Shown one piece after another: positions 3,514 to 56,835 of a stretch of 64,000 nucleotides of DNA. Origin of the DNA: an uncultured Prevotellaceae bacterium (GTDB taxonomy: Bacteria > Bacteroidota > Bacteroidia > Bacteroidales > Bacteroidaceae); contig OMSJ01000001.1 of NCBI GenBank assembly GCA_900313705.1, positions 15,115 through 79,114 on the forward strand. Reading direction: 5' to 3'. The position numbers were made by a program, and so were the translations under genes. A model generated the notes under the pieces. It saw only the letters and a program-made list of their open reading frames with translations. It made no database searches and had not been told where the DNA came from. Numbering within the stretch: the stretch's first letter is position 1; the number at the start of each line of letters is the position of its first letter.

Positions 3514-3555
3514 GTCCAGCCGTCCTGACATCAATATCGAATCTAATACTGCGCG

Positions 3556-4473
3556 ATGATGAAACACGGAATAACGCTCATTGCCTTACTGCTGCTCTCA
3601 TGCCTGACGATTTGTTCGCAGGACAATACGATGACCTTACGGTTAATGACCTACAACATTCGTCATGGAGCAGGAATGGATGACGTCATTGACTTGGACC
3701 GTCAGGCGAATGTCATTCGGGATGCCGCCCCGGACGTCGTAGGACTGCAGGAAGTGGATAGCTGCGTGAAACGCTCCGGGTACATCCCCGAGGCGGCAGT
3801 CTTAGGCAACAAGCTTGGCATGTACAGCACGTTCGGCCCTGCCATTCCCCTGACGGGCGGCAAGTATGGCGTTGCCATCTTGAGCAAGGAGCGTCCGCTG
3901 TCCGTCCGCAACATCCCTTTGCCCGGAACAGAGAAAAGGACCCTGCTGGTGTGTGAGTTCGAAGAATATGTGTTCGCCACCACCCATCTCGACCTTACAG
4001 AGGAGAACCGTCTTGCATCCCTGCCCATCATCATCGAGGAAGCAACGCGGTGGGACAAGCCCTTCTTCATCTGCGGCGACTGGAACGACACGCCTTCTTC
4101 CACCCTCATCAAGACCATGAAGAAATCCTTCTTCTTCATAAACAATACCACAGACAACTCTGCCAACTACACCTTCCCGGCACGCACACCGAAAAGCATC
4201 ATCGACTACATAGCCAGCTACGGCAAGGCCTTCACGTCGATAAGGAGTCGCAAAGTCATCAACGAACCCGAAGCCTCTGACCATAGGCCCGTAATCGTGG
4301 AAATCAAGCTCGAACGCTACTCGACCGGCATCCAAGCACCGGATGAGAGCACCGGACTCACTAAGGACGAGAAGATCTACGACCTTAGCGGCAAGCAGAT
4401 AGTAAAGCGTGACAGACTTCCTAAAGGCATCTATATCCTGAAGAACAAGAAGATAAAGATACAAAAGAATTAA
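3556..4473 (+). CDS. Endonuclease/exonuclease/phosphatase (EEP) family protein with T9SS-type C-terminal tail
   Basis: 305 aa with a signal peptide. EEP N-terminal motif LRLMTYNIRHGAG...VVGLQEVDS and C-terminal SDHRPV. Tail KIYDLSGKQIV..GIYILKNKKIKI looks like a Por/T9SS sorting domain. Paralogous to the EEP domain of 60725-63472. Confidence 0.8.
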   Translation: MMKHGITLIALLLLSCLTICSQDNTMTLRLMTYNIRHGAGMDDVIDLDRQANVIRDAAPDVVGLQEVDSCVKRSGYIPEAAVLGNKLGMYSTFGPAIPLTGGKYGVAILSKERPLSVRNIPLPGTEKRTLLVCEFEEYVFATTHLDLTEENRLASLPIIIEEATRWDKPFFICGDWNDTPSSTLIKTMKKSFFFINNTTDNSANYTFPARTPKSIIDYIASYGKAFTSIRSRKVINEPEASDHRPVIVEIKLERYSTGIQAPDESTGLTKDEKIYDLSGKQIVKRDRLPKGIYILKNKKIKIQKN

Positions 4474-43310: not shown

Positions 43311-45041
43311 ATGAGAAAAAGCAACTACGACAAGCAACCCAGCACCCACATCGACGGCAAGGCTGTCATTGGCTGGGACAATATCGTTCAGACACTCAGC
43401 AAAGCTTGGGCTGACGAGCCCGTCTGGGCCATCGACCTCTATCCGGGCACCTACGAGGAGGACTTCATCAACGCCTTTGCCAAGACCGGCCGAAAGATTA
43501 TCAATACCCGCGACCTCATGCGGCCTGAAGAGGAAATCCGACAACTGACGGAACGCTTTATGACCGATGACGTGCTCTTCGGATACATGTCGAACATTCG
43601 CTTACACGAATATTTCGACAATTCAAAATTAATAAATTCAAAATTCAAAATTGAAGAGCCCATTGCCATCATTGGCACAGGCGCAGCCTTCGTCGCCGAG
43701 AAATGGTCAATGGTCAATGGTCAATGGTCAATAGTTTACGCCGACATGGCCCGCTGGGAGATTCAGCAACGCTTCCGCCGACACGAAGTGAAGGCGCTCG
43801 GCATCGACAACCACGAGGACAGTCCCTCGGTGCAATATAAAAGAGGTTACTTCAACGACTGGAACATCATCGACCGCTACAAGGACGAGCTGATGCAGAG
43901 CGGACGCATCGAGTTCTGGATTGACTCGAACCGTCGCGACGAGCCGAAGATGATTACCGACGCGCAGATGCGGCAAGGACTGGAGCGCACGGCTCACAAA
44001 CCTTTCCGCGTCGTTCCCTTCTTCGACCCGGCTCCTTGGGGAGGCCAGTGGATGAAGGAAGTCTGCGACCTGCCTCGCGAGGAGGTGAACTACGGCTGGT
44101 GCTTCGACTGCGTGCCCGAGGAGAACAGCCTCTATCTGGAGGCCGACGGCATGCTCTTCGAACTGCCTTCGCAGGACGTCGTGCTGGCTCACACTCGCGA
44201 GCTGCTCGGACAGCAGGTGTGGCATCGCTTCGGCAAGAGTTTCCCCATCCGCTTCGACTTCCTCGACACCATGCAGGGCGGCAACCTCAGCCTGCAGGTG
44301 CATCCCACCAACGAGTTCGCACAGAAGGAGTTCGGTCTGCCCTACACGCAGGACGAGAGCTACTATCTGCTTGATGCTGGCGAGGATGCGGTGGTCTATC
44401 TCGGCCTGAAAGAAGGCATCGACAAGGTGCAGATGATAGAGGACCTGCGGGCTGCCCAGCGGGGCGAGATTCTGTTCGACGCCGAGAAGTACGTCAACAA
44501 ATTGCCTGCCAAGAAGCACGACCACTACCTCATCCCCGCCGGCACCATCCATTGCTCCGGCCACGACAGCATGGTGCTCGAGATAAGCTCTACGCCCAGC
44601 ATCTTCACCTTCAAGCTATGGGACTGGGCACGCCTCGGACTGGACGGCAAGCCAAGGCCCATCAACGTGGAGCGCGGCAAGTTCGTCATCCAATGGGAGC
44701 GCACCACATCCTTCGTCAAGTCGCAAATAGCCAACCACTTCGAGGTATTGAGCGAGGAAGAAGGCATCAAGGAAGAGCGGACCGGACTGCATCCCAACGA
44801 GTTCATCGAGACGCGGAGGCACACCTTCACTCGTCCCGTAGAGCACGACACGCGTGGCGGCGTCAACGTCCTCAACCTCGTTGATGGCGAAGCAGCACTC
44901 ATCGAGAGTCCCGAAGGCAAGTTCGAGCCCTTTGAGGTGCACTATGCCGAGACCTTCATCATCCCCGCTTGCGTAGGGCGCTACACCATCAAGCCCCTCG
45001 ACAAGGAGTGCATGACAATCAAGGCATACGTGAGAGCCTGA
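43311..45041 (+). CDS. Class I mannose-6-phosphate isomerase-like protein (long form)
   Basis: 576 aa. Cupin/PMI signature LSLQVHPTNEFAQKEFGLPYTQDESYY. Contains an in-frame (TGGTCAA)x4 array (WSMVNGQWS). Confidence 0.7.
   Translation: MRKSNYDKQPSTHIDGKAVIGWDNIVQTLSKAWADEPVWAIDLYPGTYEEDFINAFAKTGRKIINTRDLMRPEEEIRQLTERFMTDDVLFGYMSNIRLHEYFDNSKLINSKFKIEEPIAIIGTGAAFVAEKWSMVNGQWSIVYADMARWEIQQRFRRHEVKALGIDNHEDSPSVQYKRGYFNDWNIIDRYKDELMQSGRIEFWIDSNRRDEPKMITDAQMRQGLERTAHKPFRVVPFFDPAPWGGQWMKEVCDLPREEVNYGWCFDCVPEENSLYLEADGMLFELPSQDVVLAHTRELLGQQVWHRFGKSFPIRFDFLDTMQGGNLSLQVHPTNEFAQKEFGLPYTQDESYYLLDAGEDAVVYLGLKEGIDKVQMIEDLRAAQRGEILFDAEKYVNKLPAKKHDHYLIPAGTIHCSGHDSMVLEISSTPSIFTFKLWDWARLGLDGKPRPINVERGKFVIQWERTTSFVKSQIANHFEVLSEEEGIKEERTGLHPNEFIETRRHTFTRPVEHDTRGGVNVLNLVDGEAALIESPEGKFEPFEVHYAETFIIPACVGRYTIKPLDKECMTIKAYVRA
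43704..43731 (+). repeat. (TGGTCAA)x4 heptamer array inside the isomerase ORF
   Basis: Four perfect units encoding WSMVNGQWS. Confidence 0.95.
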
Positions 45042-47650: not shown

Positions 47651-48163
47651 TTATCTCGTCAATGTGTTGAGCGTATCCTTTACGGGCTTGGCAAGCTCGG
47701 CAGATTGTTGTTCGGGCTTGGAAGCAATGGAGTCGTTGCCCATGGACCATTGAGCATCGACCACGACTTCTCCCTTCTTCGCAGCGGGACTGGGGTCGTC
47801 GGTGAAGCTTTGCTGTGCTGCATTGCCGATGGTAAGAAGGATGGCGATGAGTCCTGCTGCCCTGTAGAAAGGACGAAGGCGACGCACAAAGGTTAGGCGG
47901 CGAGCCTTGCAAATGTTCCCTTCCTGCCTTCCTCCGTTGTGGGAAGTGTCTTCCCCAACCATCTGAAGCATCTTGTCGGCAAAGTCTTTGCTCAAGTGCT
48001 CGCTTGCCATCTCGTCTTGCTCTTTGAAGAACTGACGATAGGGAAGCAGACTGGCCGGTACATCTTCCTGACGGAAGAAATTGCGCAGGATAGTCTCCTC
48101 TTCAAGCGTCGTCTGGCACTCCCAGTAGCGCTCAAGCAGTTGCTCTATGTATTTATAGTCCAT
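47651..48163 (-). CDS. Single-pass membrane protein, putative anti-sigma factor partner
   Basis: 170 aa and one TM helix (AAGLIAILLTIGNAA). Sits directly downstream of an ECF sigma gene. No motif I can name. Confidence 0.45.
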   Translation of the reverse strand: MDYKYIEQLLERYWECQTTLEEETILRNFFRQEDVPASLLPYRQFFKEQDEMASEHLSKDFADKMLQMVGEDTSHNGGRQEGNICKARRLTFVRRLRPFYRAAGLIAILLTIGNAAQQSFTDDPSPAAKKGEVVVDAQWSMGNDSIASKPEQQSAELAKPVKDTLNTLTR

Positions 48164-48173
48164 TGTCTTACCA

Positions 48174-48297
48174 AATTAAGAATTAAGAGATAGGAATTAA
48201 GAATTTGCTATTGTTCAAAGATCTTTAATCTTTAATCCTTAATCTTTAATCCTTAATCTTTAATCCTTAATCTTTAATCTTTAATCTTTATTCCCTC
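48174..48297. repeat. AATTAAG / TAATCTT-TAATCCT heptamer arrays
   Basis: 48221-48297 is about 11 tandem heptamers of the same family as 33910-33950. A short AATTAAG array lies at 48174-48205. Confidence 0.85.
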
Positions 48298-48771
48298 TTT
48301 TATCTTCGTCCTGGCCCTGTGGAGATAGACCTTGACTTGTGTCTCGCTGATGTCGAGGGTCTGTGCTATCTCCTGATAGGTCTTGCCTTCGATGTCGCGC
48401 AGCAGCATGATGGTGCGTTGCAGTTCCGGCAAGCTATCCATGAGGCGGCGCACGAGAGAGAGTTGTTCGCGGGCTTCCATCGAAGACTGCACGTTGGGCA
48501 TTGCGGAATGCACATCGTCAACCTCGTCGAGGGACTTGGTGTTGCGGCCCGCCCGTTTCAGCACATCGAGCGCTCTGTTCCTGCAAATGGCGATTGCGAA
48601 GGCTTCGAGGCTGTTTATCTGCTCCCACTGGCTGCGCTGCTCCCACACTTTCAGGAGTGTGTCCTGCACCACATCTTCGGCCTCTGCCCTGTTCATCGTG
48701 ATGCGCAGAGCAAGGCGGAAGAGCCTGTCGCTCAGCGGCAAAACGGTGGTTCGGAAGCTGATGTTTTCCAT
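48274..48771 (-). CDS. ECF-subfamily RNA polymerase sigma-70 factor
   Basis: Region 2 (AEDVVQDTLLKVW) and region 4 (TYQEIAQTLDISETQVKVYLHRAR). Start set to MENISF (48771). The last 7 codons and the stop lie in the TAATCTT heptamer array. Confidence 0.9.
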   Translation of the reverse strand: MENISFRTTVLPLSDRLFRLALRITMNRAEAEDVVQDTLLKVWEQRSQWEQINSLEAFAIAICRNRALDVLKRAGRNTKSLDEVDDVHSAMPNVQSSMEAREQLSLVRRLMDSLPELQRTIMLLRDIEGKTYQEIAQTLDISETQVKVYLHRARTKIKEGIKIKD

Positions 48772-48815
48772 CTCTCTACTTATGAAGACGATTGAAGAGG
48801 GCAAAAGTTACACAT

Positions 48816-49839: not shown

Positions 49840-50802
49840 TCAGAAGGCCGCACGATACTTGCCTTCATCCTTGTCGTCGAGCATCGAGAGATAGCTCATA
49901 TAGCGGCTCTCGGCAATGCTCCCTTCGGCTACGGCCTGCAAGACGGCGCAGCCCGGTTCGTGGGTATGCGTGCAGTTGCCGAAGCGACAGCCGTCGGAGG
50001 TGCGGAAGATCTCGCGGAAGTAGTGGGACACCTCCTCGCGCTCCATGTCAAAAGTGCCGAAGCCTTTGATGCCCGGCGTGTCGATGAGCGCCCCGCCTTC
50101 CGGCAGGAAGAACATCTGCGAGAAAGTCGTGGTGTGCATCCCTGAGTCGTGTACCGCGCTGATTTCTGCGGTCTTGGCATCGGCATCGGGCACGAGCAGG
50201 TTGAGCAACGTGCTCTTCCCCACCCCGCTGTTGCCGCTGAGAAGGGTCGTCCGGCCTTGAAGTTCCTTTCGAAGTTCTTCGATGCCCGTCCTTTCCTCTG
50301 CAGAGCAAGTCAGGCAGGAATAGCCGATGCCACGATACAGGGCAACGATTTCCTCGAGTTGCTTCTGCTCCGCTTCATCATAGAGATCCGTCTTGTTGAA
50401 GACAATCAAGACAGGTACACGATACGCCTCGGCGCTTGCCAGGAAGCGGTCGATGAAGGTGGTGCTCGTCTCGGGGTGGGCAATGGTGACAATCAGCGCA
50501 GCCATATCAACGTTGGCTGCGATGATGTGATCCTCGATGTCCTCTATCAGAGCAGTCGGACATTGAACATTGACCATTGACCATTGACCATTGACCGTTG
50601 GGGCGTTGGGGCTTTGCGAGGGGGGCTGGCCGTTGGGCATCGGTTGGGGTATGATGCTGACCACATCTCCTACGGCCACGGGGCTGGTGCTACGGATGCC
50701 TTTGAGGCGAAAGTTGCCTTTCACCTTGCATTCGTAGAGCCGGCCGTCGTCCGCCTGAACGGTGTACCAACTGCCGGTGTTCCTTATGACGAGACCCTTC
50801 AT
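49840..50802 (-). CDS. rsgA: Ribosome small-subunit-dependent GTPase A
   Basis: 320 aa. N-terminal OB fold [16 protein letters not shown]...VAVGD, circularly permuted GTPase motifs ([17 protein letters not shown]) and a C-terminal zinc knuckle [17 protein letters not shown] repeat-derived insertion lies after the OB fold. Confidence 0.88.
50563..50597 (-). repeat. (TGGTCAA)x4 + TGTTCAA array inside rsgA
   Basis: The plus strand reads TTGAACA TTGACCA x3 TTGACCG, encoding [12 protein letters not shown]. Further GTTGGGG-type repeats follow up to about 50660. Confidence 0.9.
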
Positions 50803-50926: not shown

Positions 50927-51487
50927 CTAAACTGTCATGATTTCCTTCTCCTTGGCAGCAAGCAGTTCTTCCACCTTCTTGATGTACTTGTCGTGCATCT
51001 TCTGCATGTCGCCCTCAGCATCCTTCTCCACGTCCTCGGAGAGACCGTCCTTGATGCTCTTCTTGAGCTTCTCGATGACGTCACGACGTGTGTTGCGGAT
51101 GCTCATCTTGGCCTGCTCGCCCTCCTTGCCGCACTGCTTCGCAAGCTGCTTACGACGCTCCTCCGTCAAAGGGGGAATGCCCAGGCGGATAATCTCGCCA
51201 TTGTTCTCGGGCGTGATGCCCACGTTGCTGTCCATGATGGCCTTCTCGATGGGACGGAACATGCTCTTGTCCCAAGGCTTGATGGTGATGGTGCGCGGGT
51301 CGGGAGCATTGACTGCTGCCACCTGGTTCAAGGGCACCAGACTACCGTAACTATCTACGCGAATACCATCCAGGATCTTCACGTTGGCCTTGCCTGCACG
51401 GATGTGGGCCAGAGTCTCCTCAAGATACATTACAGCTTCTTCCATTTTCTCCTCGGCCTTGCCAAGGGTTTCTTTTACATCAATCAT
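50927..51487 (-). CDS. frr: Ribosome recycling factor
   Basis: Start set to MIDVKETL (51487). Typical RRF sequence ([26 protein letters not shown]). Confidence 0.95.
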
Positions 51488-51538
51488 ATTCTTTTGCGTT
51501 TTATGGTTTATAACTCGTCTTTTTACGTTATTCTTTAG

Positions 51539-51546
51539 CAAAAGTA
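51539..51546 (-). promoter_or_regulatory. -7 box TACTTTTG for frr
   Basis: Reverse complement of CAAAAGTA, about 52 nt upstream of the ATG at 51487. Confidence 0.55.
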
Positions 51547-51600
51547 GTGATTTTTTGTTAAAAACATAACGCCACACTCCATTATTTGTGCAAAAAGTGC

Positions 51601-51608
51601 TATATTTG
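51601..51608 (+). promoter_or_regulatory. -7 box TATATTTG for the VTC gene cluster
   Basis: TAnnTTTG match 23 nt upstream of the ATG at 51631. Divergent from the frr promoter. Confidence 0.6.
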
Positions 51609-51630
51609 TCGCGCAGAACATAAAAAAAGG

Positions 51631-52410
51631 ATGGATATTGATGCCCGCATAGACGATTTACTGACAAATCTGAAGCCTATCACGCTGGACGAGATGAAGG
51701 AGATTCGTCTGATGAACCGCACCGACACGAAATTCGTGACGAACAAGGAAACCCTGGCACGCCTGCTGGAGCTGGCGCAGGGCAAGTACTATGCGCAATT
51801 CCACAACGGCAGCAAGATAGCCAACTACATGACAACCTACTGGGACACCGACACCCACAAGTTCTACATGGAGCACCACAATGGTCGCGCACCACGGCAG
51901 AAAGTACGCGTCAGGACCTACATGGACAGCGACGACACCTTCCTCGAGATAAAGACAAAGAACAACCACGGACGGACGAAGAAGAAGCGCGTCGCAGTCC
52001 CCAGCCAGCAGATAACAGGCGAGAACGGCAACGAGGAGTTCCTGCAGGAGCGCGTCCACCTCAGCCTGGCAGACATACACCCCACCGTACGCAACCAGTT
52101 CCACCGCATCACACTCGTCAACTACGGCAAGACGGAACGCCTCACCATCGACTACGACGTACACTTCCATAACATGGAGACCGGCAGGGACGCCAACGTC
52201 GGGCCACTCGTCATCGTAGAGCTCAAACGCGACGGCAACGTCTTCAGCCCCGTGCTCGACATCCTCCGCAGGCTGCGCATCAAGCCAAGCGGATTCAGCA
52301 AGTACTGCATCGGCTCCGTCATGACAAACAAAAGCCTGAAGCAAAACAACTTCATGGAACGCATGGTCCTCTTTGACAAACTGGCAGGACAAAAACTACA
52401 AACCAACTAA
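51631..52410 (+). CDS. VTC-domain (polyphosphate polymerase-like, triphosphate-tunnel) protein
   Basis: 259 aa from [30 protein letters not shown] and VIVELKRD beta-strand motifs are typical of VTC/CYTH tunnel folds. TATATTTG -7 box 23 nt upstream. Confidence 0.8.
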
Positions 52411-52441
52411 ACAACACACCAGAGAACAAAAAAACTTATAT

Positions 52442-53155
52442 ATGGATTTCATTAACAACCTAAACTACGAGCTGGGCAACCTGATCGGTTTGACGCTCTT
52501 CGACCCCCAGCACTCCATCTCACTGGTAATTCGCTTCGTCATCAACCTGATAGTAGTGAGCGTCATCGCCCGTTACCTTTACTATCCCCGCAGCCATCGC
52601 CGCGACTACATGTTCATCTTTATCCTGATGTCCATGAGCATCTTCCTGCTGGTCAGCCTGATGGAAGGCGACGGCATGAACCTCGGAGCAGCAATGGGCC
52701 TCTTTGCCATCTTCGGCATCATGCGCTTCCGGACGGAAGCTGTGCCCATTCGCGAAATGACATACCTCTTCATGCTCATTGCCGTAAGTGTCGTAAATGC
52801 CCTCGGTCGTGCTGAATACCACCCCAAGGCAGACTATTGGGACGGCTTCGGACTGGTGACCATCATATTCGTCAACCTAATCTTCCTGGGTATGGCATGG
52901 CTCTTCGAGAGCAGCAGACTGGTCAGCTCCAACTGTAGTAAGTACATCAAGTACGACAATATCGCCCTCATCGCTCCCGACAAGCGCGAAGAACTGAAGG
53001 CAGACCTCGAGAAGCGTACAGGACTGAAGATTGAGCGTCTGGAAATTGGCCTCGTCGATTTCCTCAAGGACGCCTGCCTCATCCGCATCTTCTACAACGA
53101 ACCGGCAGACCGCGGCAACAGCATAGAGGAAATGACTAAGATGCCACGCCTATAA
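52442..53155 (+). CDS. DUF4956 membrane protein
   Basis: 237 aa from MDFINNL with 3-4 TM helices. This is the usual genomic partner of bacterial VTC-domain proteins, as I recall the family. Confidence 0.7.
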   Translation: MDFINNLNYELGNLIGLTLFDPQHSISLVIRFVINLIVVSVIARYLYYPRSHRRDYMFIFILMSMSIFLLVSLMEGDGMNLGAAMGLFAIFGIMRFRTEAVPIREMTYLFMLIAVSVVNALGRAEYHPKADYWDGFGLVTIIFVNLIFLGMAWLFESSRLVSSNCSKYIKYDNIALIAPDKREELKADLEKRTGLKIERLEIGLVDFLKDACLIRIFYNEPADRGNSIEEMTKMPRL

Positions 53156-53159
53156 CAAC

Positions 53160-54101
53160 ATGAAACTGCGCCATTCCATACTTGCACTCCTGCTCTTTAC
53201 CCAGTGGTCAATGGTCAATAATCAATGGTCAATGATTCGGGCACAAGAGAACGACGAGGTCGGCATCTGGTCGGAGATAGGAGTAGAGAAGTCCATCACG
53301 AAGAAATGGAACGTGGGCCTGGACTTGGAGTATCGTGCCCAGAACAGGTCGCGCTTCTCCGCAGGACTCAGCACAAGCTACAAGCCGTGGAAATGGCTAA
53401 AGTTCGGCATCGGCTATAACTACCTCCACTCCTACCGCCCGGACAGGTACAAGGAGAAAAACACCAAAGAGGAAGATCCCGACAACTATTCCATCGGCTA
53501 CAACCTCACTCCCGAGTACTGGTTCCCCCGACATCGCTTCAGCGTAGAAGCGATTGGCAGCGTCAAACTCTGGGGATGGCTCAAGGTTTCACTCAGAGAG
53601 CGCTATCAGTTGACATACTGCAAAGAAAGAAACGTCGCCAAATACAAGTACCGTCAGGACTATACGACACAAATGGACCTGGTATATCCTCCAGGCAATC
53701 CCGACGACCCATGGGATCCCATCAACTGGGCTGACCCGACGCCCGTCTATACCTACGACGTCCCCGACGGAGAACCGACAGGAACATGGGAGACAGAAGT
53801 CAAACCATCCTCTACCGACCAGGTGCTGCGCTCGCGACTGAAACTTGAATTTGACAAGAAGCGCAACCCATTCTCGCCATTCATCTCGGCAGAGCTACAC
53901 AACAGCGTCAAGCCAGGCGACAAGATGCTTCTGCAGAAGATACGAACCGCTGCAGGCCTAAGCTATAAATTCCGCAAGCACCACGAGGTGACCTTTGCAT
54001 ACCTGCTGACCTTCGACATTCACGACGTCGAAGAAGATGTTGTGGTCAGCGTACACAACAGGATGCACGCCATCAACTTCGGATACAACTACAGCTTCTG
54101 A
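53160..54101 (+). CDS. DUF2490-like outer-membrane beta-barrel protein
   Basis: 313 aa with a signal peptide. Alternating amphipathic strands ending in an aromatic residue (NFGYNYSF). A TGGTCAA array sits next to the signal-peptide cleavage region. Confidence 0.55.
   Translation: MKLRHSILALLLFTQWSMVNNQWSMIRAQENDEVGIWSEIGVEKSITKKWNVGLDLEYRAQNRSRFSAGLSTSYKPWKWLKFGIGYNYLHSYRPDRYKEKNTKEEDPDNYSIGYNLTPEYWFPRHRFSVEAIGSVKLWGWLKVSLRERYQLTYCKERNVAKYKYRQDYTTQMDLVYPPGNPDDPWDPINWADPTPVYTYDVPDGEPTGTWETEVKPSSTDQVLRSRLKLEFDKKRNPFSPFISAELHNSVKPGDKMLLQKIRTAAGLSYKFRKHHEVTFAYLLTFDIHDVEEDVVVSVHNRMHAINFGYNYSF
53205..53232 (+). repeat. (TGGTCAA)x4 (one unit TAATCAA) array in the DUF2490-like ORF
   Basis: TGGTCAA TGGTCAA TAATCAA TGGTCAA, encoding WSMVNNQWSM just after the signal peptide. 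Confidence 0.9.
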
Positions 54102-54175
54102 TAGACCATCATTCAACCCGAACCAATAACAGCATAACTATATAGCAAATCACAAACCATTAAACAATACAAAAG

Positions 54176-54631
54176 ATGAAGACAAAGAACATTCTGGCAG
54201 CCCTGCTGCTCATGGCCAGCTCCACCGCTATGGCCGACAACTCCAAGTTCCTCACCATTACCTACAGCGGTACCGAACAGAACATCTCCCTGCCCATCGT
54301 GCAGAGAATCACCTTCGAGGAAGGCTATGTCGTTGTCACCACAACAGAAGGCAAGCACTCCTACCCCATCTCTGTCCTGGACAAGATGACCTTCACCGAA
54401 AAGGACGAAGCTACCGCCATCCAGGCACTGCCCGAACAGGCAGAGAACATCACCTGCAAGGACGGCACACTCGCCATCAAGGGCAACGGCATGTTGCGCA
54501 TCTACAACACAGCCGGCGCACTCGTCAGCATTGCCAACGTCAAGGAAGGTGCCAACATCAGCCTCGACAACCTGCCTGCCGGTGTCTATGTTGTGCGCAT
54601 GGGTGACAAGGCCATCAAGATAAGGAAATAA
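54176..54631 (+). CDS. Small secreted protein with T9SS C-terminal sorting domain
   Basis: 151 aa with a signal peptide. C-terminal LRIYNTAGALV...LPAGVYVVRMGDKAIKIRK. Confidence 0.6.
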   Translation: MKTKNILAALLLMASSTAMADNSKFLTITYSGTEQNISLPIVQRITFEEGYVVVTTTEGKHSYPISVLDKMTFTEKDEATAIQALPEQAENITCKDGTLAIKGNGMLRIYNTAGALVSIANVKEGANISLDNLPAGVYVVRMGDKAIKIRK

Positions 54632-54637
54632 CACACA

Positions 54638-55849
54638 ATGAAACGTACTCTTATCACAAGTGTACTCTTGTGCTGTGCGTTCATGTTGCAAGCCCAGGAG
54701 CAGATACGCATCTGGCAAGCTGGCAACGACACACGCGTGACGACCACTGAGATGCCGTTCTCCGACGGAGGAACAAGCTTCACCATAGGAGACAAGACGT
54801 TCAGCACAAGCAGCGTGGACAGCATCACGGTGGTACACACCATCTACGTCACGTTTGCCGGAAGCACGGCCACCGTCGATCTGGGACATGCTCCAGAGGT
54901 TACGGCAACTACTGACGGCGCGCATGTCTCCATCGTCAGCACAAACACCAGGAGCGAACTGGAGCTTGTGCTGCAAGGCGAGAGCACACAAGGGTCACTG
55001 ACCTACGAAGGTCCGCTCAAGTGTAAGTTCTACCTGAACGGCCTCAATCTCACGAGCGACCGTGGCGCTGCCATCGACATCCAGTGCGGCAAGCGCGTTG
55101 ACCTCATCCTCAACCCTGGCACGCAGAACTTCCTTACCGATGCTGCCGGTGGAACCCAGAAGGCAGCCTTGTACTGCAAGGGACACCTCGAAGTGGAAGG
55201 CAGCGGCTCACTCACCGTTGCCGGAAACGCCAAGCACGCCATCGCCTCCAAGGAGTATATGCAGCTGAAGAAGGATGTCGGCAGCATCACCGTCACCAAG
55301 GCAGCATCTGACGCCATGCACGTCGGCCAATACTTCCTTATGAGCGGCGGAACACTGACGCTCACCGGACAGGCTGGCGACGGACTGCAGGTCGAAGTGA
55401 TGACACTCGACGATGACGTCACGCCCAACCCCGAGAAGGAGAACAACGGAAAGATGTTCATCCGTGGAGGCAAGCTGAACATTGAGGCTGCGAACAACGA
55501 TGTCAAGGGCATCAAGGTTCCAGGCGACCTGACCGTCAGTGGCGGAACATTCCAAATCATCGCCTCCGGCAACGGAAGCAAAGGCATCTCTGTCTCAGGC
55601 AACATGCTGGTCAACGAAGATGACAACACTACCCTCATGCAGATACGTGCCACAGGCAACATCTATGAGAACGAGGAAACGGAGGAAGAATCACGCTGCA
55701 TGGGCATCAAGGTGGACGGCAACCTGACCGTCAATGCCGGCACCATACGCGTCTCCAACACCGGTAGGGACTCACGCGGCATCAGGGTACATGGCACATA
55801 CACAAAGTCTGCCAACGCCACAGTTCAAGCCAACATCAAGCAAGGCTAA
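54638..55849 (+). CDS. Secreted beta-helix protein, carbohydrate-binding (Cthe_2159-like) candidate
   Basis: 403 aa with a signal peptide. Repetitive G-x-L/I-x-V/I turns (LEVEGSGSLTV, LTLTGQAGDGLQV, LNIEAANNDVKGIKV, LTVSGGTFQI) suggest a right-handed beta-helix. The family assignment is from memory only. Confidence 0.45.
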   Translation: MKRTLITSVLLCCAFMLQAQEQIRIWQAGNDTRVTTTEMPFSDGGTSFTIGDKTFSTSSVDSITVVHTIYVTFAGSTATVDLGHAPEVTATTDGAHVSIVSTNTRSELELVLQGESTQGSLTYEGPLKCKFYLNGLNLTSDRGAAIDIQCGKRVDLILNPGTQNFLTDAAGGTQKAALYCKGHLEVEGSGSLTVAGNAKHAIASKEYMQLKKDVGSITVTKAASDAMHVGQYFLMSGGTLTLTGQAGDGLQVEVMTLDDDVTPNPEKENNGKMFIRGGKLNIEAANNDVKGIKVPGDLTVSGGTFQIIASGNGSKGISVSGNMLVNEDDNTTLMQIRATGNIYENEETEEESRCMGIKVDGNLTVNAGTIRVSNTGRDSRGIRVHGTYTKSANATVQANIKQG

Positions 55850-55872
55850 ATACAGAATAGGCCTACATACAC

Positions 55873-55910
55873 AAAGAGGCTGTGTCACAAAACACAGCCT
55901 CTTTTGTTTT
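55873..55910. terminator. Bidirectional intrinsic terminator
   Basis: AAAGAGGCTGTGT / ACACAGCCTCTTT 13-bp stem with a 6-nt loop, followed by TGTTTTT. It sits between the convergent beta-helix gene and rfbA. Confidence 0.85.
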
Positions 55911-55926
55911 TATTCACACAACTTGC

Positions 55927-56835
55927 TTAGAAGTCGTCGCTGGCAGTGCCAAAGCGCTTCACATCTTCAATCACCTTGAGCAGGTACTGCCCGTACTGGT
56001 TCTTGAGCATGGGCTTTGCCAGTTGGCGCATCCTTTCCTCGTCTATCCAACCTTTGCGGTAGGCAATGCCTTCCAAGCAACCCACCTTGAGTCCCTGGCG
56101 CTTCTCGAGCACCTCGATGTAGGTGGAAGCCTCAGAGAGGGAATCGAAAGTGCCTGTGTCGAGCCAGGCAAAGCCGCGGCCAAGGGTCTGTACCTTCAGT
56201 TCACCATCGGCGAGGAAGCACTGGTTGACCGTCGTTATCTCATACTCACCTCTTGCGCTGGGCTTGATGTTCTTTGCCACATCCACCACCTTGTTGGGGT
56301 AGAAGTACAGACCAACCACGGCATAATTACTCTTGGGCTTTGTCGGCTTCTCCTCGATGGAGAGGCAGTTGCCCTGCTTGTCGAACTCGGCCACGCCGTA
56401 GCGCTCAGGGTCGTTCACCCAGTAGCCGAAGACCGTTGCCTTCTTCTCAACCTCTGCCGTACGTACCGCTTCGCGGAGCATGGCACTGAAACCGTTGCCT
56501 TGGAAGATATTATCGCCCAGGACGAGGCAGGCGCAATCGTCGCCGACGAAGTCAGCCCCAATGGTGAAAGCCTGTGCCAATCCGTCGGGCGAAGGCTGTT
56601 CAGCATACTCGAAGTGCACGCCGTAGTCGCTGCCGTCGCCCAGCAAGCGCTTGAAGCCTGGCAAGTCGAAGGGTGTAGAGATGATGAGGATGTCACGTAT
56701 GCCCGCCAGCATGAGGACGCTGATGGGATAGTATATCATCGGCTTGTCGTAGATGGGCATGAGCTGTTTGCTGATACCCTTCGTGATGGGATAGAGCCGG
56801 GTGCCTGAGCCGCCGGCCAGTACAATTCCTTTCAT
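55927..56835 (-). CDS. rfbA: Glucose-1-phosphate thymidylyltransferase
   Basis: 302 aa. [18 protein letters not shown] and the full RmlA pattern. Confidence 0.95.

Follow-up and report, generated by a model that had tools for sequence, protein, structure and literature searches.

A conserved VTC–DUF4956 operon of Prevotellaceae as a candidate trans-envelope polyphosphate system

In yeast and protists, the VTC complex, which consists of Vtc4 with Vtc3 or Vtc2 and Vtc1, combines a polyphosphate (polyP) polymerase with a polyP channel. In a 2025 review, VTC remains the enzyme type of eukaryotes and PPK that of prokaryotes. In Gram-positive bacteria, a set of genes for CotH, a polyP polymerase, DUF4956 and DUF4832 has been described as an accessory block of Pel loci, and VTC genes occur with CotH in NELoc-2 of Clostridium perfringens. 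Here we describe an operon in a 64 kb stretch of DNA from an uncultured Prevotellaceae bacterium (the whole analysed stretch is referred to below as the window). In this operon, genes for a VTC protein (g1) and a DUF4956 inner-membrane protein (g2) are followed by genes for a DUF2490 outer-membrane barrel (g3), a small protein with a type IX secretion system (T9SS) sorting domain (g4) and a beta-helix protein of the Cthe_2159 family (g5). The operon is self-contained and is conserved across Prevotellaceae and other Bacteroidales. It is a well-defined candidate for a route by which bacteria would move polyP out of the cytoplasm; we infer its direction, its substrate and export from the evidence discussed below.

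Among the systems closest to it is the cotH-VTC-DUF4956(-DUF4832) module of the Gram-positive Pel loci and NELoc-2, which has the same core pair beside secreted or extracytoplasmic partners. The Bacteroidales version differs in that it lacks CotH, is unlinked to Pel genes, and adds the barrel, the Cthe_2159 beta-helix and the T9SS adaptor. An earlier note on this DNA, made from the sequence alone, had raised the presence of CotH-like kinases in the neighbourhood; none was detected in the window or in 87 related loci by tblastn with a single distant Deinococcus CotH as the query, a search of limited sensitivity. The same note had stated that the VTC–DUF4956 pair has no experimentally defined function. 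This is essentially right: no paper in the literature searched names DUF4956 together with VTC, and the only experiments found were gene deletions in Streptococcus intermedius. In that study, loss of either the DUF4956-like gene or the CotH gene lowered aggregation and altered Pel levels. The authors described the DUF4956 homologue as an MgtC-like transmembrane region joined to an ACT domain, and suggested that polyP may stay cytoplasmic. In Bacteroides thetaiotaomicron, BT3498–BT3499 (DUF4956 and DUF2490) are included in an iron-stimulon table, without statistical significance.

Conservation and organization of the operon

Conservation of the operon was assessed by scanning one genome per species with an alignment of 20 VTC sequences as the query. 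The scan yielded 80 loci, all from Bacteroidales; most were in Prevotellaceae, with others in Alloprevotella, Paraprevotella, Prevotellamassilia and one Muribaculaceae genome, and the VTC proteins they encode are 50–85% identical to g1. Breadth beyond Bacteroidales rests on plasmid records and the literature. Synteny was counted over the 69 species-level loci with enough downstream sequence. The VTC gene is followed by a DUF4956 gene in 69/69 loci, and DUF2490 comes next in at least 62 of these, the remainder having an open reading frame (ORF) of ~300 aa in that slot, or an overlap. A Cthe_2159 gene lies downstream in 64/69 loci. Stop and start codons overlap at the VTC–DUF4956 and DUF4956–DUF2490 junctions in several lineages, and the same gene order is found in more distant metagenomic loci, sometimes with a second, dockerin-bearing Cthe_2159 paralogue. 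The earlier note had named conservation of the gene neighbourhood, in advance, as a test by which its proposal could fall; these counts strongly uphold the proposal on that point.

The genes that flank the cluster vary between loci. The common ones are housekeeping genes only (frr, rsgA, pyrH and a birA-like gene), and no further conserved accessory gene was found in the flanks. The cluster often lies between frr/rsgA and pyrH, which encodes UMP kinase (L010, L020, L030, L033, L038, L043 and other loci). Since pyrH and frr are usual neighbours in bacteria, the operon appears to have been inserted into this housekeeping junction in part of the clade. Three contigs with this Gram-negative-type cluster (L011, L048 and L058) come from metagenome-assembled genomes labelled Opitutae, Oscillospiraceae and Clostridiales; their sequence and synteny match Prevotellaceae, and they are probably mis-binned.

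In the window, the operon comprises five co-directional ORFs on the + strand, 51631–55849 (Table 1). On one side it is flanked by the divergent frr gene (ribosome recycling factor, - strand) and on the other by the convergent rfbA gene (- strand). The spacers from g1 to g5 are, in order, 31, 4, 74 and 6 nt. The earlier note had placed all five genes behind one -7 box, and this was borne out: the box TATATTTG at 51601–51608 is the sole TAnnTTTG on the + strand of 51000–56100. A TTTG lies ~20 nt upstream of the box, and the box is 22 nt before the g1 ATG. The start of the interval in the earlier note, 51586, has to be revised. That position is a TTG upstream of the -7 box, and gene callers and homologues agree on ATG 51631 as the start of g1, giving a protein of 259 aa. 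For g2, the most likely start is ATG 52442 (237 aa). With one promoter and one terminator around them, the five genes look like a single transcription unit.

Table 1. Features of the VTC–DUF4956 operon and its flanking signals, in window coordinates
Feature	Coordinates	Strand	Details
Promoter, Bacteroidetes-type: TTTG (-33-like) and -7 box TATATTTG	51581..51608	+	Read directly from sequence
g1, VTC/triphosphate-tunnel domain protein, putative polyphosphate polymerase, cytoplasmic	51631..52410	+	259 aa, isoelectric point (pI) 9.5
g2, DUF4956 inner-membrane protein, 237 aa, ~5 helices then C-terminal beta-alpha-beta-beta (ACT-like) domain	52442..53155	+	PF16316, E=8.1e-50
g3, DUF2490 outer-membrane beta-barrel, 313 aa, signal peptide, C-terminal Phe (...NYSF)	53160..54101	+	PF10677, E=3e-19
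g4, 151 aa: signal peptide, ~55-aa N-domain, T9SS type-A C-terminal sorting domain	54176..54631	+	TIGR04183
g5, Cthe_2159-family right-handed beta-helix, 403 aa, SPI-type signal peptide, ~50-aa N-domain	54638..55849	+	PF14262
Intrinsic-terminator-like hairpin (13 bp, 6 G-C) and T-run	55873..55904	+	Directly after the g5 stop, between g5 and convergent rfbA

Two other features of the surrounding DNA touch on the operon. A gene for a sigma-70 factor of the extracytoplasmic function (ECF) type (48274–48804, - strand) and a likely anti-sigma gene (47651–48163, - strand) lie ~3 kb upstream. ECF sigma/anti-sigma pairs are also found near VTC–DUF4956 genes in Aminobacter, Nitratireductor, C. perfringens NELoc-2 and loci L005–L007. 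This proximity could be a coincidence, given the many ECF sigma factors in Bacteroidales. In addition, tandem heptamer arrays, (CAATGGT)n, occur within coding sequence at 43701–43735 (+), 50566–50600 (-, in rsgA) and 53202–53236 (+, in the signal-peptide region of g3), with 10 matches against 0 expected by chance. The arrays are translated as QWSMVN-type insertions; in g3, the array adds ~12 aa, relative to orthologues, to the segment that separates the signal-peptide hydrophobic core from the cleavage site. A role for the arrays as phase-variation switches was unsupported, the copy number being identical in four near-identical strains.

The putative polymerase and its inner-membrane partner

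The five family assignments proposed in the earlier note were all confirmed by hidden Markov model searches (PF09359, PF16316, PF10677, TIGR04183 and PF14262). The predicted compartments likewise agree with the layout it had proposed: a triphosphate tunnel metalloenzyme (TTM) in the cytoplasm, a multi-pass protein in the inner membrane, a barrel in the outer membrane, and further proteins that are secreted or at the surface. The match of g1 to the VTC family PF09359 covers residues 29–229 (E=6.9e-31, 108 bits against a cut-off of 23). The protein has no transmembrane segment and no SPX domain, and the Pfam scan shows no match besides VTC. With a threshold of E up to 1e-3, an exhaustive search for homologues of g1 returned 3693 cluster representatives. 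When 90 diverse bacterial homologues of full length (31–67% identical to g1) were aligned, 23 positions proved invariant. As a single sequence, g1 gave only noise against the PDB, and a profile of the 90 sequences was needed; this profile matched only the catalytic domains of yeast Vtc2 (3G3O, E=3e-5) and Vtc4 (3G3Q, E=4e-4).

Residues of Vtc4 were mapped to g1 by counting along the profile alignment, with residue roles taken from the VTC cryo-EM paper. Eight of the nine active-site residues of Vtc4 are kept in g1, and each of the eight is identical in g1 and invariant in the 90 homologues: K200 (K34 in g1), R264 (R93), R266 (R95), K281 (K108), R361 (R159), the Mn2+ ligand E426 (E197), S457 (S223) and the catalytic lysine K458 (K224, in the motif GFSKYC, compared with FSKF in Vtc4). 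The sole departure is Y359, which is replaced by F157. Within the triphosphate- and Mn-binding set (K200, R264, R266, K281, Y359, R361, E426 and S457), 7/8 residues are therefore identical. The cryo-EM paper gives K458 as Ile in inactive Vtc2 and as Leu in inactive Vtc3; of the residues listed, it alone differs there. As judged from sequence, the active site of g1 is essentially intact, and g1 is a putative polymerase.

The second protein, g2, matches PF16316 with 169.3 bits over model positions 1–169. A hydropathy profile and an AlphaFold2 (AF2) model both indicate 4 or 5 hydrophobic helices. Across the DUF4956 family, a set of basic and acidic residues is strongly conserved; of these, R53/R54, R95, R97, E99, R104 and E105 lie in loops that are predicted to face the cytoplasm by the positive-inside rule. 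The family also has a conserved Gly-rich helix, GxAxGLFAxFG. No relative was found when the family profile was compared with the PDB. A Foldseek search of the PDB with the g2 model gave a best E of 0.27, with recurring but weak ACT-like matches to the C-terminal domain and no VTC chains. The Pfam scan of g2 at E up to 10 recovered neither DUF202 (Vtc1) nor MgtC. A relationship of DUF4956 to MgtC was rejected as not demonstrable by these searches.

There are parallels between this pair and the yeast VTC complex. The catalytic domain of g1 belongs to PF09359 and keeps the binding residues, including the Vtc4-specific Lys, and in both systems a small multi-pass membrane protein is the genetic partner of a soluble tunnel domain. 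The two also differ. g1 is a separate protein without SPX and is not fused to transmembrane helices; the active-site tyrosine is a Phe; the partner is DUF4956 (~5 helices and an ACT-like domain) rather than the 3-helix Vtc1/DUF202; and the destination of the polymer would be the periplasm or the exterior rather than the vacuole. Thus, g1 is a member of the VTC domain family, while the system as a whole, having neither a Vtc1-type channel nor SPX, is not a VTC complex. It may nevertheless work like one.

The outer-membrane barrel and a proposed surface pair

The third protein, g3, matches PF10677 with 69.9 bits (cut-off 29.8). Outer-membrane barrels usually end in Phe, as g3 does, and the AF2 model of g3 is a confident beta-barrel, with a mean predicted local distance difference test score (pLDDT) of 88.9. 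The less hydrophobic face of each strand was taken as the lumen. On this assignment, lumen-parity positions hold 25 Lys/Arg and 16 Asp/Glu, and ~13 basic lumen positions are at least 98% conserved in 52 homologues (R59, R65, K75, K81, R124, R126, R146, R148, R224, R226, K260, R262 and K270). The modelled charge pattern would fit an anion-conducting pore. DUF2490 has been classified as a putative porin, TC 1.B.81 (PMC4827864).

Synthase-dependent secretion of exopolymers (alginate through Alg8/44–AlgE, Pel, PNAG and cellulose) offers a further parallel: these systems have an inner-membrane polymerase, a dedicated barrel whose electropositive lumen suits an anionic polymer, and extracytoplasmic beta-helix accessories. 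In contrast, a glycosyltransferase, a TPR scaffold and a c-di-GMP receptor are all missing from the Bacteroidales operon, and its polymer would be inorganic. The resemblance is architectural and not one of homology; AlgE was 48th among the Foldseek matches of g3 (E=5.7e-3).

The last two genes encode proteins that are predicted to reach the cell surface. g4 scores above the cut-off for the T9SS sorting domain TIGR04183 (28.8 bits, cut-off 23) and just below that for Pfam PF18962 (24.7, cut-off 27). Its signal peptide is MKTKNILAALLLMASSTAMA, and its orthologue in locus L096 has a weak precomputed match to Por_Secre_tail. A second ORF in the window, at 3547–4473 (+, 308 aa), has a weak C-terminal match to a T9SS-tail profile built from g4 orthologues (E=1.2e-4), which hints at other T9SS cargo in the genome. 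g5 matches PF14262 (E=5.1e-41, 141 bits) and, over residues 129–293, the solved structure of Cthe_2159 from Clostridium thermocellum (4PEU/4PHB, E=6e-8), a PL9-like beta-helix that binds cellulose and polygalacturonate. g5 is thus a direct match within the same Pfam family; it differs from Cthe_2159 in having an extra N-terminal adaptor domain and in lying within a VTC operon. Among 69 sequences, conserved polar residues are placed on successive turns of the helix (K128, K152, D168, K175, H200, Y207 and D225), a pattern that suggests a defined binding or catalytic site. A search for g5 homologues on plasmids gave two uninformative matches, and no annotated context was gained.

In this genome g5 has neither a T9SS tail nor a lipobox. 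Its orthologues take two forms. The first, as here, has an ordinary signal peptide and an N-domain of ~50 aa with the consensus MRIWQxGESTR...VDSITV. The second has a lipoprotein Cys followed by D/E-rich residues (CTDDD, CSNDDE, CVNDD, CEKDD, CGSDD and similar), which we take to resemble the signal for surface export of Bacteroidota lipoproteins. The N-domain of g4 is homologous to the N-domain of g5: hhalign in local mode gave a probability of 93.9% (E=1.6e-7), compared with 2.1% for a control alignment of the g4 tail with the g5 N-domain. The two proteins also co-vary across loci. All 55 copies of g5 with the N-domain have a g4-family gene immediately before them, while 12 of the 13 copies that lack it have no preceding g4; these 12 are 11 lipoproteins and one dockerin fusion. 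For the resulting table (55/0/1/12), Fisher's exact test gave p=1.8e-12, uncorrected for phylogeny. In locus L080 the order is a lipoprotein g5, g4, and a g5 with the N-domain.

The homologous N-domains and their complementary pattern are newly seen here. Together with the co-occurrence of g4 and g5, they point to g4 as a surface-anchoring adaptor for g5. The simplest reading of these sequences is that g4 is a small adaptor that would hold g5 at the surface through paired N-domains, and that lineages without g4 use a lipid anchor. The earlier note had placed g4 and g5 at the surface or among secreted proteins, which stands; it had also treated them as two separate proteins, a view that gives way to an adaptor–cargo pair. 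One possibility is that the tail-less g5 crosses the outer membrane by co-transport with g4 through the T9SS. g4 resembles type-A T9SS cargo in its sorting domain, and the g5 orthologues without g4 resemble surface lipoproteins. g4 is unlike other T9SS cargo in that its cargo part is only ~55–70 aa and is apparently a handle for a second, tail-less protein; we know of no such arrangement described for the T9SS.

Variants of the surface genes were found in several loci. A dockerin-like motif, DxNxDGxI, takes the place of the T9SS tail of g4 in L050 (12507–12935) and L056 (12371–12778), and elsewhere a second Cthe_2159 paralogue carries a directly fused dockerin; variants of these two kinds are also recorded for L073 (13605–14954), L091 (10720–12084) and L100 (9731–11083). 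The dockerin variants suggest an alternative, possibly Ca2+-dependent, anchoring of the beta-helix. In L048 (from 12381) and L066 (from 12631), the slot after DUF2490 is filled by ORFs of 610 and 680 aa that share only a g4-like C-terminal tail, and there is no Cthe_2159 gene. The same core may here serve another surface cargo.

Proposed export of polyphosphate and the alternatives

The VTC–DUF4956 pair also appears in annotated plasmid and megaplasmid records of Deinococcus and Alphaproteobacteria. In Deinococcus taeanensis it occurs with a CotH kinase, and in Deinococcus sp. QL22 it adjoins a HAD acid phosphatase and phnDCE. A phytase-like esterase accompanies the pair in both Aminobacter and Nitratireductor; in Aminobacter it is joined by an S8 peptidase and an ECF sigma factor, and in Nitratireductor it comes, with an inorganic phosphate (PiT) transporter, directly after the pair. 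The Bacteroidales-type locus L100 has a gene for a Na/Pi cotransporter with a PhoU domain, on the same strand and 3.9 kb upstream. These neighbourhoods, each independent of the others, link the pair to phosphate metabolism, with no indication of the direction of flow.

We tentatively favour a model, short of calling it probable, in which polyP synthesis by the VTC operon is coupled to outward transfer across a four-layer envelope system. On the cytoplasmic side of the inner membrane, g1 would use ATP to build the phosphate chain and would dock on g2. The Arg-rich cytoplasmic loops and Gly-rich helix of g2 may then take the chain and deliver it into the periplasm, much as yeast VTC couples synthesis to membrane transit; a gating role in this transfer may fall to the ACT-like C-terminal domain of g2. 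g3 would serve as the outer-membrane conduit, and g5 at the surface would bind, retain or process the polyanion. g5 would be anchored through its own lipid anchor in some lineages, and here by pairing of its N-domain with that of g4, which would itself be exported and anchored by the T9SS. A bolder version of the model is doubtful: a dedicated trans-envelope polyP synthase-exporter, made up of VTC, DUF4956 as a new inner-membrane conduit and the DUF2490 barrel, with a beta-helix receptor that hitch-hikes on a minimal T9SS adaptor through paired N-domains. If true, this would be a new class of bacterial polymer-secretion system, and g4 would be the first T9SS cargo that carries a tail-less partner.

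Several observations weigh against export. A Vtc1-like channel was sought in DUF4956 and rejected as a demonstrable relationship, since neither its sequence nor its modelled fold detectably resembles the yeast Vtc1/Vtc4 channel; the AF2 monomer model of g2 is of moderate confidence (pLDDT 66), which limits the fold test. If DUF4956 conducts polyP, it would do so with a fold unrelated, or not recognisably related, to that of the yeast channel. Similarly, g3 was rejected as a specific homologue of AlgE, OprP or KdgM, since Foldseek returned only generic barrels (FadL, VDAC and OmpG) with template modelling (TM) scores of at most 0.36, and the charged interior of the modelled barrel would equally fit a closed, salt-bridged barrel. 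The suggestion of the earlier note that the cluster serves synthesis and export, or surface display, of a phosphate polymer is partly upheld: in its operon, its conservation and its VTC active site, and not in any similarity to a Vtc1-like channel or match to a specific polyanion porin. g5 is acidic (pI 5.4). Hitch-hiking on T9SS cargo is, to our knowledge, unprecedented, and g5 has no route of its own across the outer membrane that we know of. The genes for phosphate uptake beside the pair in other phyla would suit storage as well as export. The only characterised relative of g5, Cthe_2159, is described as binding cellulose and polygalacturonate rather than polyP. The VTC cryo-EM paper reported that Y359F, which corresponds to the Phe found in g1, reduces polyP content in yeast. 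Deletion of the VTC gene in S. intermedius caused no aggregation phenotype, although polyP was not measured in that study, and the literature searched yielded no enzymology for any bacterial VTC protein.

The flow may instead be inward, a reading that we consider possible if on the unlikely side. The beta-helix and DUF2490 would then bring in a substrate that is anionic or carries phosphate (Pi, polyP, phytate-like compounds or phosphate-bearing pectic polymers), and VTC–DUF4956 would bank the phosphate as cytoplasmic or periplasmic polyP, much as yeast VTC buffers Pi. Uptake would suit the transporters and scavenging enzymes beside the pair in other phyla (PiT, the phytase-like esterase, the HAD acid phosphatase, phnDCE and the Na/Pi cotransporter with PhoU). 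It would also suit the binding of extracellular polyanionic polysaccharide by Cthe_2159 proteins and the basic barrel lumen, which could admit anions as well as release them. However, the Bacteroidales cluster has no TonB-dependent or SusC/D-type importer and no periplasmic phosphatase, yeast VTC moves polyP out of the cytosol, and the tight, sometimes overlapping DUF4956–DUF2490 junction couples the barrel with the partner of the synthase and not with uptake machinery. These overlaps also bear on an unlikely reading in which the transcript carries two functional halves and no polymer crosses the envelope. In that case, VTC would make cytoplasmic polyP or sense triphosphates, with DUF4956 as a regulator of MgtC-like architecture bearing an ACT-like sensor, and DUF2490, g4 and g5 would act at the surface as an adhesin for, or a binder of, plant cell-wall polysaccharide. 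The description of the DUF4956 homologue by the S. intermedius authors, including polyP that may stay in the cytoplasm, is consistent with this division. So are the weak ACT-like Foldseek matches, a Cthe_2159 biochemistry limited to binding of cellulose and pectate, and the place of the source organism in a gut and rumen clade of fibre degraders. On the other hand, the Pfam scan gave no MgtC match, and the pair has extracytoplasmic partners in Gram-positive bacteria too (secreted CotH and DUF4832). Moreover, DUF2490 and Cthe_2159 follow VTC–DUF4956 in nearly every Bacteroidales locus despite shuffled flanks, and the conserved order and overlapping junctions make a functional link between the halves hard to avoid.

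It is quite improbable that g1 is a TTM enzyme with another chemistry, such as a tripolyphosphatase, a nucleotide cyclase, or an enzyme that attaches phosphate or nucleotide to a lipid or glycan acceptor, in a system that exports or decorates some other phosphorylated product. TTM enzymes share a basic tunnel and differ in their triphosphate substrates (PMC9582702); in addition, the Vtc4 match of g1 is at the profile level only (E ~1e-4), and the Tyr-to-Phe change lies at the Y359 position. Nevertheless, the best family match is specifically to VTC, and the Ser-Lys pair equivalent to S457–K458 is invariant in g1 homologues, while K458 is lost in the non-catalytic Vtc2 and Vtc3. Chance adjacency of five genes that share no function has a negligible likelihood. 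The gene order is kept in ~60 species-level genomes with different neighbours, g4 and g5 co-vary, and the five genes lie between a single promoter and a single terminator; the synteny data exclude such adjacency.

Extracellular or surface polyP has been reported for several bacteria, and it affects host coagulation, immunity and gut-barrier function. We know of no export route for bacterial polyP. With a VTC gene hard-wired to inner-membrane, outer-membrane and surface parts in abundant gut and rumen Bacteroidales, the operon is a concrete candidate for such a route. PolyP synthesis in bacteria is credited to PPK1 and PPK2, with VTC described in reviews as eukaryotic, yet the VTC-only cluster representatives retrieved here from bacteria number 3693. 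The locus is also an entry point to the CotH–VTC–DUF4956 modules of the streptococcal Pel loci and C. perfringens NELoc-2. Separately, the g4–g5 adaptor pattern offers an idea of how Bacteroidota may display proteins that lack a sorting signal of their own.

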